Below are positions 1,459-7,167 of a stretch of DNA of 35,846 nucleotides, piece by piece. Position numbers and translations under genes: made by a program. A model generated the notes under the pieces. That model was given only the letters and a program-made list of their open reading frames with translations, ran no database searches and was not told where the DNA came from. Within the stretch, counting starts at the first letter, position 1; every line of letters begins with the position of its first letter. The stretch is from the IMG/VR virus record IMGVR_UViG_2529293061_000007; one strand, 5' to 3'. This DNA comes from a virus (Duplodnaviria; Heunggongvirae; Uroviricota; Caudoviricetes).

Positions 1459-2622
1459 TTACACATCATTAGTACCTTCCTTATTTTTTGACTGGGACAA
1501 ATTTGGGACCGATGGGTTCAGGATCGAGTCTATTTGCCGTGCGTGTTCGGTAAGGTGATTAGGTGCGAGGTGAGCATATCGACGAACCATTTCGATAGAC
1601 TCCCAGCCTCTCATTTCCTGTAACACTGACAACGGGACACCGGCTTGAACCAGCCAGCTTGCCCAGGTGTGTCTCAAGTCGTGAAATCTGAAATCATCAA
1701 TACCAGCCCGTCTCAGCGCCGCTTTCCAGGCTGTGTTTGCGTCATACCGCATCTTCCTTACTGTTGGCGCTTTCGTTCCGTCTGGTTTGGTACAGCTTTC
1801 CTTGTACACAAATACCCAACGGTGATGATTCCCGATTTGTTTTTTCAATACGCGACATGCAGTATCATTCAGCGCAACGCCAATTGCGCGGTTTGATTTA
1901 CTCTCTTCCGGGTTTATCCATGCCACCCGGCGCTGCATATCTATTTGTTGCCATTCAAGGTTGATGATGTTCGAGCGTCTTAAGCCTGTTGCCAGTGCAA
2001 ATTCAACAACAGACTTTAATGGCTCCGGACATTCATCAATCAGCCTTTGTGCTTCATGGGGCTCCAGCCAGCGGATCCGTTTATTCTTTGGTTGAGGCAC
2101 TTTAATAATTGGTGCCTTATCCAGCATTTTCCATTCACGCTCTGCGGCTCTTAGTAGGGCCTTTATAAATGAAAGATGCGTAGCCTTCGTTGCAACGGAC
2201 GCTGGTTTTGGCGTGTATTCTGGAACAGGTTTCCCTTTTTTTCTGCATGCTTCTGCCCTGAGTTTCCAGTTTTCCTCATGACGCCGGTTCGTCATTTTCT
2301 GCATTGCTGAATAAATTTTTGATTCAGTAATGTCTCTTAGTTGCATTCCTGCGAAATGTTGAAGCCAGAATCCGATCCGGCTTTTGTCATCGTCCAGTGA
2401 TTTTTTATGTGCTTTCTCTTCAAGCCACCTGACACACGCTTCCTCGAACGTTATATCAGGTATTTCACCAAGTTTGCTGCCCCGCCATGCTTCAGCCTTT
2501 AGCTTGTCATGGAGTTCTGTCGCCTGCCTTTTGTCCTTTGTTCCAAGAGACTGTTTAAATCTTTTACCGTTCGGCAATGTGAAACTGGCGTACCATATTT
2601 CACCTCTGCGGAAGAGTGACAT
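1459..2622 (-). CDS. int: tyrosine site-specific integrase (P22/SfV-like)
   Basis: 387-aa ORF; C-terminal catalytic signature HDLRHTWAS...[19 protein letters not shown] at 2620-2622 with AGGAAA RBS; adjacent to tRNA. Confidence 0.9.
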
Positions 2623-2849
2623 TTTCTTTCCTCTGTTATGCCATCACCCGCGCTCACCTGGACAGTATGCAGCGGAGACTGAAGAGCCGCAATGCAGGCT
2701 TGTCGTGTTGTGAGGTAAGGAGATTTATTCTTAGTGGGATCTTTGCGTGTTGCCTGAAGACGCCCTGTGCGTATCCAGTTAATGGCAGTCGGTCTGGATA
2801 TCTTGAGAAAATGACAGGCCTCATCGAGTGTGAGGCTGTATGGCTCCAT
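2499..2849 (-). CDS. xis: excisionase (Xis, P22-type)
   Basis: Internal start [36 protein letters not shown] (excisionase-type HTH) preceded by GAGGGG RBS; 3' end overlaps int out of frame. Confidence 0.6.
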
Positions 2850-3154
2850 TATTTCCCCTCTTGCTGTGACATTGTTGAAAAATGGATACCAGCTCGTTGC
2901 TGCCAGACGATCCAACCGAGAGTCATATCCCATGCCATGTATTCGTTATCGCCGTTTTTTGCTCTCCGACGATCTACTAAGTCACCGAAACGCTTTTCCA
3001 TGAATAATTCATAAGCTTCGCGTTCATCTGGTTCTACTTCCAGAGATAGGAGTGCGATTTCATAAGCACGGCGCTCAATATCGTCTCGCACGTCAAGGCT
3101 GCTGATACGCTCTTTAATTTCTTTAATTAGTTCTTTGTCGGTAAAAGTGGTCAT
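2849..3154 (-). CDS. hypothetical early-left protein (101 aa; resembles CPS-53 YfdT by size and position)
   Basis: ORF with GGAG RBS; translationally coupled to neighbours; acidic, helical-looking translation. Confidence 0.6.
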   Translation of the reverse strand: MTTFTDKELIKEIKERISSLDVRDDIERRAYEIALLSLEVEPDEREAYELFMEKRFGDLVDRRRAKNGDNEYMAWDMTLGWIVWQQRAGIHFSTMSQQEGK

Positions 3155-3516
3155 TATGCTCCAGCCTCCGGTGCTTTTGGCATTACTGCCCAGTGAGTGA
3201 TATTGACGTTTTCAAGGTCCCCGACCTGAAATGTCCACTGCCATTCTCCGGTTTCTTTTTGTCCCCAGGTGTACCAGAGAGAACGCCAGCCAATTAGCCA
3301 GCCTTCTCCGTTAGCATCGAATAACAAAACACTTTCATTTGCTGGTGGCAGTTCAGTTGACACTGGTATTACTTTGTTTTCCTGTGCTGCACATTTAGCT
3401 TCAAGCGCATCGAATTTACGCACCAGGTATTCAGTATCTGTTTCATTTACTTTCAGATCTCGCGGTACACATCTCCCACGAAGAAACCCTTCCATTTCGA
3501 AAACATTCATGCGCAT
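3154..3516 (-). CDS. hypothetical early-left protein (120 aa; resembles CPS-53 YfdS)
   Basis: ORF with GGAG RBS 8 nt upstream of ATG; overlaps upstream gene by 10 nt. Confidence 0.6.
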   Translation of the reverse strand: MRMNVFEMEGFLRGRCVPRDLKVNETDTEYLVRKFDALEAKCAAQENKVIPVSTELPPANESVLLFDANGEGWLIGWRSLWYTWGQKETGEWQWTFQVGDLENVNITHWAVMPKAPEAGA

Positions 3517-4043
3517 TTGCGTAACTCCGATAACTCGTTAAAGCGTTCCATAAACATCCCGTAGGCATGGCCCGGTGCCAGTGGAATCACGTTGAACATC
3601 TCTGTTGCCGGGATACCTTCCAGTACAGGCCAGAAAGAGCCATCATCAAGCCCGAGATCGCGGCGTTCGGTTGCCAGCATGATGAGATCGGCATATTTCA
3701 CGGGCGTACTCATAACTGGGGGTAACCCGTATTTCTCACGGATTACGGCGTCTATTTTTTCTTCCATTTGTTTATAGTCAGGAAGAAGGCGTTTCAGTGG
3801 TGCGGGAATGTCCTGGCAATACGCTTCTGTTGCATCATGCATTAACGCTTCAAAAGCAAATTCCTGCGGCACCAGCTGGCTGCAAAGAACCGCATGTTGG
3901 GCGACGCTGTAGAAGTGCGAAAGATGACCGGCAAAGCGACAGATATTTGAAAGGGAAACCGCGATATCGTTAATATCGATGTCGTCTTTATTTATCCTGT
4001 CATAATAAAAATGCTTCCCGGAAAAAGTTTTAATAAATGACAT
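3507..4043 (-). CDS. HD-domain phosphohydrolase (YfdR-like 5'-deoxynucleotidase family)
   Basis: His/Asp metal-binding motifs (...FAGHLSHFYSVAQHAV...LMHDATEAY...); likely start is ATG at 4041-4043 with GTGGAG RBS rather than the upstream GTG at 4070. Confidence 0.7.
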   Translation of the reverse strand: MSFIKTFSGKHFYYDRINKDDIDINDIAVSLSNICRFAGHLSHFYSVAQHAVLCSQLVPQEFAFEALMHDATEAYCQDIPAPLKRLLPDYKQMEEKIDAVIREKYGLPPVMSTPVKYADLIMLATERRDLGLDDGSFWPVLEGIPATEMFNVIPLAPGHAYGMFMERFNELSELRKCA

Positions 4044-5471: not shown

Positions 5472-5560
5472 ACAAAACAGAGAAGAACACCTGCGGTGGC
5501 AGCCGCCAGGATGGATTGGGTTATGAGCCCGTCGTCCGGTGATGCTCTTCTCTGTTTTGT
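5472..5560. repeat. perfect 15-bp inverted repeat (ACAAAACAGAGAAGA / TCTTCTCTGTTTTGT) flanking a 59-bp GC-rich spacer
   Basis: Read directly: 5472-5486 is the reverse complement of 5546-5560; lies in an ORF-free GC-rich segment. Confidence 0.7.
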
Positions 5561-5860
5561 AAAAAGGACGGTCCCAGCCGTAAGCAAGGGTACAAACTGG
5601 TACCGCCAGGACTACACACAGCATAAAGTTGTGGTGCCGGGTGCCTCCCGGTGCCTGGCGAAGGTTGCACACCAGACGGGTGGGTATCCACAGAAGGTCG
5701 ACTGTCAGCCTCAACCTTAACCCGCGTGCGCTGAGCCGCATTCACCACAACGCTAAGGATTCTCTTTGGTTGAAAATACTTAGCTGTTATGTGCCTGTCT
5801 TTTCACCACTTCAGGCTCGGTGGTATCCTTTTAAGCCCGTATACATAAAAGGAAAATCAA

Positions 5861-6106
5861 ATGACTTTTGATGAAAAAGAACTTGATAATGCAATTAATA
5901 AAATCATCGTAACGTCGCTCTTTTCCTGTCTCAGCGACACTCAGCAGAAACAGTTCTACGAATCGGCTTTCAACATGATCGAGCGTTGTTGTTTCTGCGA
6001 TGCCGACGAGTTACCTGAAAAAATCAGGAAACAGTTGGCTGATGCTCTTCGAGTGCGACTTTCTGACCAATTTTCTGAAATGTGCTCTCCGAATTTGGAC
6101 AAATAG
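5861..6106 (+). CDS. hypothetical small protein (81 aa), transcribed opposite to the early-left operon
   Basis: ATG with AAGGA RBS; AT-rich; helical-looking translation; stop TAG followed by a hairpin. Confidence 0.5.
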   Translation: MTFDEKELDNAINKIIVTSLFSCLSDTQQKQFYESAFNMIERCCFCDADELPEKIRKQLADALRVRLSDQFSEMCSPNLDK

Positions 6107-6299
6107 AAAAAGGCCATTTCCATTCAGGGTCTGATGGAAATACTTCAGCCTGTTCCAAAGCACGGCGTAAAGAGAACACAACTCCAGCCATAATCTGATG
6201 TTTCCCATTGGTCCAGCTATCGCCGCTCTGATCTACAGGGGCGGCTATGTCGTATGACCAAACGACTTCACAGTTATTGTTTAAAATCTGGACTTTCAT
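6024..6299 (-). CDS. hypothetical protein (first ORF downstream of PL; start probably ATG at 6297-6299)
   Basis: AGGTG RBS before internal ATG; but the ORF reads through a terminator-like hairpin and overlaps the convergent + ORF, so it is uncertain. Confidence 0.3.
   Translation of the reverse strand: MKVQILNNNCEVVWSYDIAAPVDQSGDSWTNGKHQIMAGVVFSLRRALEQAEVFPSDPEWKWPFSICPNSESTFQKIGQKVALEEHQPTVS
6101..6141 (-). terminator. candidate intrinsic terminator (tL1-like) on the minus strand
   Basis: 8-bp stem ATTTCCAT/ATGGAAAT (6116-6123 / 6134-6141), 10-nt loop, then CCTTTTTCTATTT on the minus strand; stem is AT-rich, so weak. Confidence 0.35.
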
Positions 6300-6404
6300 T
6301 TCATACACCTGCTTTAACATGAGTGCCTAGTGGCACAACATGACTCAACGAATCATCCTGGACTTCATATGCCCCAGGCGGCTACTTCGTGGGCGTCCTG
6401 CCTG

Positions 6405-6455
6405 TTCGTTGTTTCGCTTGGGTACATTATGTATCTCAAAGGTACATTGTCAAGT
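6405..6455 (-). promoter_or_regulatory. candidate PL promoter with OL operators
   Basis: Minus-strand TTGACA (6448-6453), 16-nt spacer, CATAAT (6426-6431); two GGTACAT motifs overlap, matching the half-sites seen in the cI-cro intergenic region. Confidence 0.5.
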
Positions 6456-6480
6456 ATAAAAAAACCTGCCGAAGCAGGTT
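6456..6480 (-). terminator. intrinsic terminator downstream of cI
   Basis: Hairpin AACCTGC-CGAA-GCAGGTT (6463-6480) followed on the minus strand by a U-tract (6456-6462); 13 nt past the cI stop. Confidence 0.55.
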
Positions 6481-6492
6481 CATAAACATTGA

Positions 6493-7167
6493 TTAGGCTT
6501 TGATTTTGTATCTTCTTGGTTTTCCTGAGAAAATCACTGTACCAATTATAGAGCAATTACCGTTGATCTTAATGTAAGGCTCAGGCCAATTTGGGTTTAA
6601 CGCTTTGAGATAACGCTGTGTCCCATCTTCTATCAACCTTTTGAAGGTGGTTTCACCTGTATCGTGCATCAATGCAATAACGTCGTCACCGTGGCAGGCA
6701 GGTACTTCAGGATCGACAAAAATCATGTCTCCCGGGCGGTACTCATCAATCATTGAATCACCTATCACCCGCAAGATATAAGTCATTTCCCCACAGGGTA
6801 CAGGGCAGGGATACGTTTCTGCTGTGCTCAAATCAACCTCAGAATATCCAACTTCTTTCCATGCTCCGGCCTGTACCCATGATATGACAGGGACTAATGT
6901 GATTTGTTTATTAGTGATTGAAACATCAGGTTTTTTTGTGATGTTCGTTGTCTGGTGTTCTTGATCGAGCCATCCGACAGGCAGGTCGAAACATTTTTCG
7001 ATGTGTCGTGCCATGCTGTCACCGATATTTTTAGTAGCACCATCTCCCATAAACCTGCTGGTCTGGGTTGGCTCGCGATCAATCATAGTGGCAAAGGAAG
7101 AATTCCCGCCAACACCATCTCTCAGTTTTCTGGCGTTAGACCGCCGGATGTCATGGATTGTTTTCAT
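6493..7167 (-). CDS. cI: CI-type phage repressor (N-terminal DNA-binding domain + S24 LexA-like autopeptidase domain)
   Basis: C-terminal GDSM (catalytic Ser) and FKRL (Lys) S24 motifs; divergent from a cro-like gene; essentially leaderless start. Confidence 0.85.
   Translation of the reverse strand: MKTIHDIRRSNARKLRDGVGGNSSFATMIDREPTQTSRFMGDGATKNIGDSMARHIEKCFDLPVGWLDQEHQTTNITKKPDVSITNKQITLVPVISWVQAGAWKEVGYSEVDLSTAETYPCPVPCGEMTYILRVIGDSMIDEYRPGDMIFVDPEVPACHGDDVIALMHDTGETTFKRLIEDGTQRYLKALNPNWPEPYIKINGNCSIIGTVIFSGKPRRYKIKA

Follow-up and report, generated by a model that had tools for sequence, protein, structure and literature searches.

What are two small, overlapping genes that face each other beside the immunity region of a prophage there to do, and are both of them real? 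The locus that raises this question lies in a 35,846-nucleotide (nt) stretch of viral DNA (IMG/VR record IMGVR_UViG_2529293061_000007), here called the window, whose positions are used as coordinates throughout. The window represents a lambdoid prophage of E. coli/Shigella that resembles SfV and e14. Its plus strand carries an open reading frame (ORF) of 81 amino acids (aa), ORF81, and its minus strand carries a second one, ORF91, downstream of a PL-like promoter. Several E. coli chromosomes match the 801 bases surrounding the pair at 100% identity, and phage SfV matches them at 99.3%; this allele occurs in about 380 of 5,426 complete E. coli genomes, and the hotspot that houses it in about 1,950. 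The two genes make up a compact, mobile cassette in a cargo hotspot immediately downstream of PL in lambdoid prophages of the SfV/e14 type. We propose that it may hold an accessory gene and a lytic-cycle partner whose expression would be kept mutually exclusive by convergent transcription, and give this reading as a whole a probability of about 0.45. The pair itself consists of three features.

5861-6106, plus strand: ORF81, encoding an 81-aa acidic protein (from the ORF listing, with a PHROG match)
6024-6299, minus strand: ORF91 (SfV orf33; phrog_3195), first gene of the PL transcript, 91 aa, with a conserved start, MKVQ, at 6299
6024-6106, both strands: 3'-to-3' overlap of ORF81 and ORF91, dual-coding, 83 nt

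A first-pass annotation, made from the letters of the window, had called an 81-aa plus-strand ORF with a good ribosome-binding site, and this is indeed present: the Shine-Dalgarno sequence AAGGAAAA occupies 5849-5856 and ends 4 nt ahead of the ATG. The same annotation gave the minus-strand ORF as 91 to 98 aa. It does lie just past PL and does overlap ORF81, and its true start is the one at 6299, giving 91 aa. This MKVQ start has a conserved Shine-Dalgarno sequence, the alternative start at 6320, which would give 98 aa, occurs in this allele only, and similarity among IMG/VR haplotypes breaks off from 6302 on, immediately upstream of the 6299 start codon. Both proteins belong to families labelled "unknown function": ORF81 matches phrog_3311 over its full length (E = 1.2e-55, positions 1-81 of 81), and ORF91 matches phrog_3195 (E = 3.8e-65, positions 8-98 of 98). 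ORF91 is annotated as orf33 in SfV, and PGAP calls its 91-aa form only. ORF81 is unannotated in SfV and by PGAP, and is thus a conserved gene absent from SfV and RefSeq annotations.

Plain protein searches returned mostly near-identical sequences. For the minus-strand ORF a profile search brought relatives at 58-68% identity; overall, ORF91 homologues are 51-67% identical, and ORF81 homologues are 34-63% identical and intact in every relative examined. From the contigs of the profile-search relatives, together with loci reached through distant ORF81 relatives, we assembled ten versions of the cassette: those of the window, L006, L096, L099, L094 (Salmonella), L101, L102 (identical to L101 in the cassette), L098, L105, and L111. 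Frameshifted database variants (P0037, P0043, P0050, P0020, and P0022), which come from single reads or assemblies, were left out. Nucleotide identity to the window is 60-68% in the eight versions for which it was quantified. Despite this divergence both ORFs are intact in all ten, the alignment has no gaps, and the distance from the ATG of ORF91 to the ATG of ORF81 is exactly 439 nt in every one. Both are also intact in 80 of 80 near-identical loci from IMG/VR, which represent 51 haplotypes.

The pattern of substitution is that of two coding genes. Among seven alleles, the ratio of nonsynonymous to synonymous substitution rates (dN/dS) is 0.15-0.19 for ORF81 when read in its own frame and exceeds 1 when read antisense; for ORF91 it is 0.24 in its own frame, in the part that does not overlap, and above 1 in the opposite frame. 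When the window is compared with L006, substitutions at codon positions 1/2/3 number 15/4/30 in the part that belongs to ORF81 only and 17/7/37 in the part that belongs to ORF91 only. The first-pass annotation had left room for one ORF alone being conserved; both are, and both are protein-coding by dN/dS. By sequence comparison, ORF81 and ORF91 are protein-coding genes under purifying selection and one rigid inherited unit, and we consider it highly probable that both are real genes forming a co-inherited cassette.

The 83-nt overlap, put earlier at about 80 nt, is where the two frames can be compared directly. As the test region we took the part in which the ORFs overlap in every allele (about 6042-6083, ORF91 residues ~73-86). 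Third-position columns of ORF81 are variable in 8 of 14 cases there versus 50 of 54 outside (Fisher p=0.0036), and for ORF91 the counts are 4 of 14 versus 53 of 64 (Fisher p=0.00015). Reduced third-position variability in both frames fits real dual coding or an added constraint at the RNA level. Constraint on both proteins is weakest in the few codons that flank this region. As dual-coding convergent overlaps go, the pair is small and clean, and it belongs to a phage group that has been studied well.

The stop codon of ORF91 varies in position, giving proteins of 91, 93, 107, or 122 aa. We rejected the 122-aa form, since its tails have dN/dS above 1 and their variation is biased to second codon positions. 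The ORF91-family proteins of this length (P0040, P0051, P0052, and P0054-P0056; for example, L006 3001-3369) are over-extended, their last ~35 residues being an antisense reading of ORF81, and on the contigs that carry them ORF81 is not called. Many database "proteins" of the ORF91 family bear spurious tails of ~30 residues of this kind.

If both genes are real, how would they be transcribed? The signals on either side are as follows.

6493-7167, minus strand: cI-like S24 (LexA-family) repressor gene, a ymfK homologue, annotated cI or ymfK (Peptidase_S24 match, 1.5e-26)
6462-6481, minus strand: terminator of the cI-like gene (terminator scan)
6426-6453, minus strand: PL-like sigma-70 promoter, TTGACA-16-CATAAT, strong, 11/12 match to consensus
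5802-5829, plus strand: candidate ORF81 promoter, TTCACC (5802-5807)-16 nt-TATCCT (5824-5829), 8/12 consensus positions
5805-5824: inverted repeat ACCAC (5805-5809)/GTGGT (5820-5824), with 10 nt between the arms, spanning the -35 element and the spacer

The PL-like promoter follows directly on the cI-like gene and its terminator, and repeated GGTACATT operator-like motifs, read directly from the sequence, surround it. This terminator and the promoter separate cI from the ORF81/ORF91 pair. ORF91 begins 120 nt downstream. The pair had been placed at the rexAB-equivalent position; its actual place is downstream of PL and corresponds to that of N in lambda.

On the other side, the conserved part of the module upstream of ORF81 ends at TGCCTGTCTTTTCACCACTTCAGGCTCGGTGGTATCCTT, which holds TTCACC-16-TATCCT. 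The TATCCT -10 element is invariant in seven diverged PL-proximal alleles and reads TAACCT in the most distant allele, L105. The same promoter-like element stands ahead of e14 ymfI and SfII_36, and the Shine-Dalgarno sequence is likewise conserved and shared. We infer that TTCACC-16-TATCCT is a weak promoter of constitutive type for ORF81. L105 retains the arms of the inverted repeat, with a 7-nt loop of unrelated sequence between them, and in L098 the arms are changed in a compensatory way (ACCGC/GCGGT). One of the two proteins may use the repeat as its operator; an RNA hairpin is less likely. ORF81 has no terminator of its own. In the terminator scan the nearest plus-strand terminator-like site, a weak one at 6389-6405, lies past ORF91, so that a transcript of ORF81 would be antisense to the whole of ORF91.

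The neighbourhood is a variable slot. Prophage e14 of E. coli K-12 matches the window almost exactly on both sides, over the left flank at 5717-5829 and over the right flank from about 6345 up to cI, and between them it carries ymfI (plus) and ymfJ (minus), convergent with a 63-nt overlap (L003 3998-4585). We considered homology of ORF81 and ORF91 to ymfI and ymfJ and rejected it, BLASTP giving nothing significant. SfII carries SfII_36 (plus) and an unannotated 68-aa minus-strand ORF with a 39-nt overlap (L090 1621-2022), SfIV and Kati carry an ECs1072-family gene (plus) and a minus-strand ORF of 68-73 aa with a 29-nt overlap (SfIV, L091 1693-2320), and PhiR29 carries a single 242-aa plus-strand gene. 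By ORF layout, four of the five cassette types at the slot are convergent pairs that overlap at their 3' ends, and these are mutually unrelated. With flanks common to e14, SfII, SfIV, PhiR29, and Kati and different inserts between them, the slot is that of a moron. The immunity regions beside the pair differ as well, with an S24 cI, HTH_3 repressors, or YdaS/YdaT or P22_Cro/CII partners. Across these prophages ORF91 is the first or second gene past the repressor-side promoter, and ORF81 faces it.

Two further observations concern the slot. A slot filled with mutually unrelated convergent pairs suggests that the hotspot swaps two-gene modules. In the Salmonella prophage L094 a 384-aa protein with an HSDR_N domain (restriction-enzyme-like) is encoded at 2552-3706, between the repressor gene and ORF91/ORF81, and represents extra cargo at the same boundary.

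At the same slot L111 has ORF81/ORF91 followed by a second, unrelated convergent pair in tandem (1882-2326). The pair also travels beyond this slot. In L105 it sits just upstream of the holin genes, with ORF91 co-oriented with the lytic genes; the two proteins there are 50% and 51% identical to ours (hhalign probability 100%), and the spacing is again 439 nt. The rule is one of orientation: ORF91 runs along a lytic operon, and ORF81 runs against that operon. Some distant ORF81 relatives stand without a partner, in L104 and L110 between Q and holin, antisense to the late operon, and in L107 beside the icd attachment site. These are classic moron positions, so ORF81 behaves as cargo, and its closer subfamily has gained ORF91 as a fixed partner. 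The first-pass annotation had already suggested a cargo gene here, which the variable hotspot between conserved flanks and the distant homologues antisense to lytic operons bear out.

We then looked for leads to function in the proteins themselves. Both are small, acidic, and soluble, without a membrane segment, with isoelectric points (pI) of 4.6 for ORF81 and 4.95 for ORF91. Profile searches of both families in Pfam, NCBIfam, PADLOC, and PDB gave nothing significant, and two scans of GTDB species representatives found no relative of either. ORF81 is predicted to be all-helical, with three helices at low confidence (AlphaFold2, single sequence; predicted local distance difference test score, pLDDT, 58), and the ORF91 model, made with a 10-sequence alignment, has a pLDDT of 50. 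Foldseek of the models against PDB returned only E>1; the models are too poor for fold comparison. Since neither protein has a family or fold lead, any mechanism has to be drawn from architecture.

Two specific ideas were tried and dropped. An N-type antiterminator role for ORF91 was rejected on its composition (7 lysines plus arginines in 91 aa). Neither ORF has an arginine-rich motif or an N-like profile match, in agreement with the earlier remark that neither resembles N (pI 4.6 and 4.9). A CCxC metal site as a feature of the ORF81 family failed too: it is invariant in close alleles and lost in P0060, P0062, P0063, and P0065. The motif around it, RCC[YF]C.AD (window 5943-5963, ORF81 residues 42-48), is invariant in all close alleles together with a near-C-terminal cysteine and disappears from relatives less than about 50% identical, so that a metal or disulfide site, if there is one, would be specific to the subfamily.

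How might such a pair work? In Tha/Ith, a prophage defence gene is accompanied by a small overlapping antisense inhibitor gene and is switchable by antisense transcription (PMC11087260). We propose a comparable arrangement. With PL repressed, only ORF81 would be transcribed, from its own weak promoter, and in the lysogen its product would be made as an accessory protein, acting, for example, in phage exclusion or host modification. On induction, the strong PL would fire through ORF91 and then through ORF81 in antisense. ORF91 would be made, and ORF81 would be shut down by transcriptional collision and RNA duplex formation. ORF91 could then be to ORF81 what Ith is to Tha, a cognate antagonist or partner, and protect lytic growth of the phage that carries it. 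The parts of this account are not equally firm. Mutually exclusive expression of the two ORFs by convergent transcription is, we judge, an even bet. That they are an effector and its cognate antidote is the most speculative step, taken by analogy, and taken singly it is rather doubtful.

Several points weigh against the proposal. It is built on architecture, with expression in this cassette predicted from the sequence. The candidate ORF81 promoter, at 8/12 to consensus, is below the threshold of the scan. Distant ORF81 relatives (34-41% identity) stand without an ORF91 partner. The lack of matches in Pfam, NCBIfam, PADLOC, or PDB and the low-confidence models leave a defence or antidote role without direct support. 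Compared with Tha/Ith the polarity is reversed, the presumed accessory gene having its own candidate promoter and the partner standing in a repressor-controlled operon. Finally, physical overlap by itself forces co-inheritance, so that linkage is no proof of functional coupling. What is demonstrated here is the layer of a real, co-inherited, oppositely oriented gene pair; among explanations of what the pair does, an effector plus a partner ranks first.

The explanation that survives next best is that the two genes are unrelated neighbours: ORF91 an early lytic accessory or host-takeover gene, ORF81 an independent moron, their overlap a product of compactness, and their linkage a product of an overlap that cannot be split. 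That the overlap enforces linkage, that distant ORF81 homologues occur alone, and that both proteins are least conserved in their overlapped C-terminal tails all agree with it. An accidental pairing would hardly be expected, however, to keep a 439-nt spacing unchanged across 60-68% identity and two genomic contexts, or to recur as the same convergent overlap in four unrelated cassettes at one hotspot. We regard it as unlikely, if still a serious contender.

Much less probable is the model offered by the first-pass annotation, in which a hairpin at 6116-6141 is a tL1-like terminator of the PL transcript and antisense transcription through ORF81 takes place under antitermination only. The feature concerned lies inside ORF91.

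6100-6150, minus strand: hairpin plus U tract, intrinsic-terminator-like, allele-specific

Its stem arms are ATTTCCAT (6116-6123) and ATGGAAAT (6134-6141), and the stop codon of ORF81 precedes it by 9 nt, or by 5 nt if the outer GGCC/GGCU pairs are counted, rather than by 7 nt as first given. Read on the minus strand, the extended form (6150-6112) has a folding energy of -14.2 kcal/mol and runs directly into UUUUUCUAUUUG (U5CUAU3). Its stem is AT-rich, and with z -1.8 it is equalled by 11 of 200 shuffles. On the plus strand the same hairpin reaches -10.3 kcal/mol with z -0.3 and has no U tract. As stated earlier, it looks like a terminator for the minus strand alone; the z score there is modest, and the consensus terminator scan did not list hairpin 6112-6150. 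The fold and U tract in this allele speak for the model, as does a conserved structured leader RNA, described below, where HK022 has putL. Comparison across alleles speaks against it. No comparable structure is found in L006, L094, or L098, and L101 forms another hairpin in this place, which is non-significant, so that the stem is absent from four diverged alleles. What is conserved there instead is TGGCCTTTTTC, which encodes the W-P-F-S motif of ORF91, the U run being part of this coding sequence. A terminator at this point would moreover cut ORF91's own mRNA at about codon 65, and the leader RNA is not detectably put-like. The hairpin is probably a by-product of this allele's codons and not a conserved control element; antitermination gating, at best specific to the SfV type, is not a conserved feature of the module.

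An addiction-type pair that stabilises the prophage has equally little to recommend it. Two small proteins that are tightly linked and mobile together, among morons of toxin-antitoxin (TA) type (Phd/Doc in L105, HicAB in L110), would suit such a role. Type II TA genes are co-directional, co-transcribed, and autoregulated, however, and ORF81 and ORF91 are convergent; neither protein shows a TA family or domain in Pfam, NCBIfam, or PADLOC; and ORF91 behind a repressed PL would leave the toxin unopposed in the lysogen. Last, that one ORF is real and the other merely an open antisense frame is scarcely credible: SfV and PGAP do annotate the minus-strand ORF alone, and the long antisense tails of the 122-aa database proteins are truly spurious, but outside the overlap each ORF has third-position-biased substitutions and, in its own frame, a dN/dS of 0.15-0.24, and its amino acid changes are conservative down to 34-51% identity.

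The leader RNA mentioned above is context outside the cassette.

6340-6412, minus strand: conserved structured RNA, the PL leader between PL and ORF91 (RNAalifold)
L003 4607-4680, minus strand: copy of the leader RNA
L006 2526-2598, plus strand: copy
L094 3910-3982, plus strand: copy
L096 2833-2905, plus strand: copy
L099 2912-2984, plus strand: copy
L102 2910-2982, plus strand: copy
L090-L093: further copies

This RNA of ~70 nt stands directly past PL in many lambdoid prophages with unrelated immunity regions, and it also occurs where ORF91 is absent. Of the 15 pairs that RNAalifold predicts, 8 show compensatory changes, and the G-U pairs fit the minus strand. The closing helix is AACGAA/UUCGUU (GUCAUC/GAUGAC in other phages), and a hairpin is formed by CCUGG/CCAGG or CCCGG/CCGGG. 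It has no match in Rfam. A put-like identity is not supported: a covariance model of the leader, which finds one copy in the window, has no match at E<=10 on the HK022 immunity region with putL and putR, and HK022 put shares short motifs only. The leader may be a processive-antitermination or leader element in phages without N.

In some relatives (L096, L006, L098, and L101; for example, L096 ~2930-2975) a second conserved motif, short in length, AAACGTTC[CA]GC, stands between the leader RNA and the first PL gene. After it comes a small GC hairpin with a covarying stem (GCUGG/CCAGC, CCGG/CCGG, CGCC/GGCG). The motif is absent from the window. On the far side of the cassette, downstream in the PL direction, adjoins a stretch (5558-5773, minus strand) with a full-length match to the STnc100 family of prophage small RNAs (sRNAs) that is below threshold (36 bits against a gathering score of 47, E=1.5e-5). 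PGAP has a frameshifted pseudogene there. According to a 2026 preprint, STnc100 is related to the PasD sRNAs of pathogenic E. coli.

What would follow if the pair were an effector and its antidote? The hotspot would then be a place to look for new small proteins that act against phages or modify the host, and the self-immunity principle of Tha/Ith would extend from staphylococcal to enterobacterial phages. If that is wrong, we are left with two overlapping hypothetical phage genes and no more. A still bolder and more improbable possibility is that the PL-proximal slot exchanges self-contained modules of an effector made in the lysogen, anti-phage or host-modifying, and its cognate lytic antidote on the other strand, switched by convergent transcription from a shared inverted-repeat promoter. 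On that view there would be four unrelated cases (ORF81/ORF91, ymfI/ymfJ, the SfII pair, and the SfIV pair of the ECs1072 family), the first of them founding an effector-antidote family that is new.

Among known systems, type II TA modules differ from this pair in the ways already given, namely, its convergent layout and lack of TA domains. Like lambda N and HK022 Nun, ORF91 comes first past PL and a leader RNA element; unlike them it is acidic, with no arginine-rich motif and no similarity to either. The rexAB genes of lambda stand between cI and PL and share the cI transcript, and RexB is a membrane protein. The ORF81/ORF91 cassette resembles rexAB and BstA-type exclusion genes in being lysogeny-associated cargo beside the immunity region. 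It differs from rexAB in its position downstream of PL, in showing no sequence similarity, and in having no membrane segment. Temperate phages also have convergent switches: the lambda PRE transcript is antisense to cro, and oop is antisense to cII. As there, face-to-face transcription and antisense RNA would tie expression to the lysis-lysogeny state; the partners in lambda are regulatory genes or noncoding RNAs, whereas here conserved proteins are encoded on both strands.

A positional analogue is ymfI/ymfJ of e14, which occupies the same hotspot, with the promoter and inverted-repeat element on its left and the PL leader RNA on its right, and has the same convergent layout, with ymfJ proximal to PL. 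Its proteins are unrelated to ORF81 and ORF91. There, ymfJ is strongly induced late in the SOS response, with the protein detected, and ymfI changes little (PMC11002266). The closest parallel in principle is Tha/Ith of S. aureus phage 80alpha, a noncontiguous antisense operon (PMC11087260). The idea of self-immunity comes from BstA and its aba element, as far as their citation in that paper goes. Our pair has the layout of the Tha/Ith type: protein genes on opposite strands, overlapping units, and ORF91 behind a PL-like promoter. In both systems an accessory gene and a small gene on the opposite strand share an overlapping transcript, and one member is under a promoter controlled by the life cycle while the other has, or here is predicted to have, its own. 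The differences are equally clear. There is no sequence or domain similarity, with no HEPN domain and no homology to Tha or Ith in either protein by Pfam, PADLOC, and NCBIfam. The polarity is reversed, in that ORF81, the presumed accessory gene, has its own candidate promoter and ORF91 belongs to the repressed lytic PL operon. ORF81 and ORF91 also overlap 3' to 3' and are dual-coding, and their function is proposed by analogy. A prophage accessory cassette with an antisense partner is thus a kind of element already known, here built from two uncharacterised protein families.

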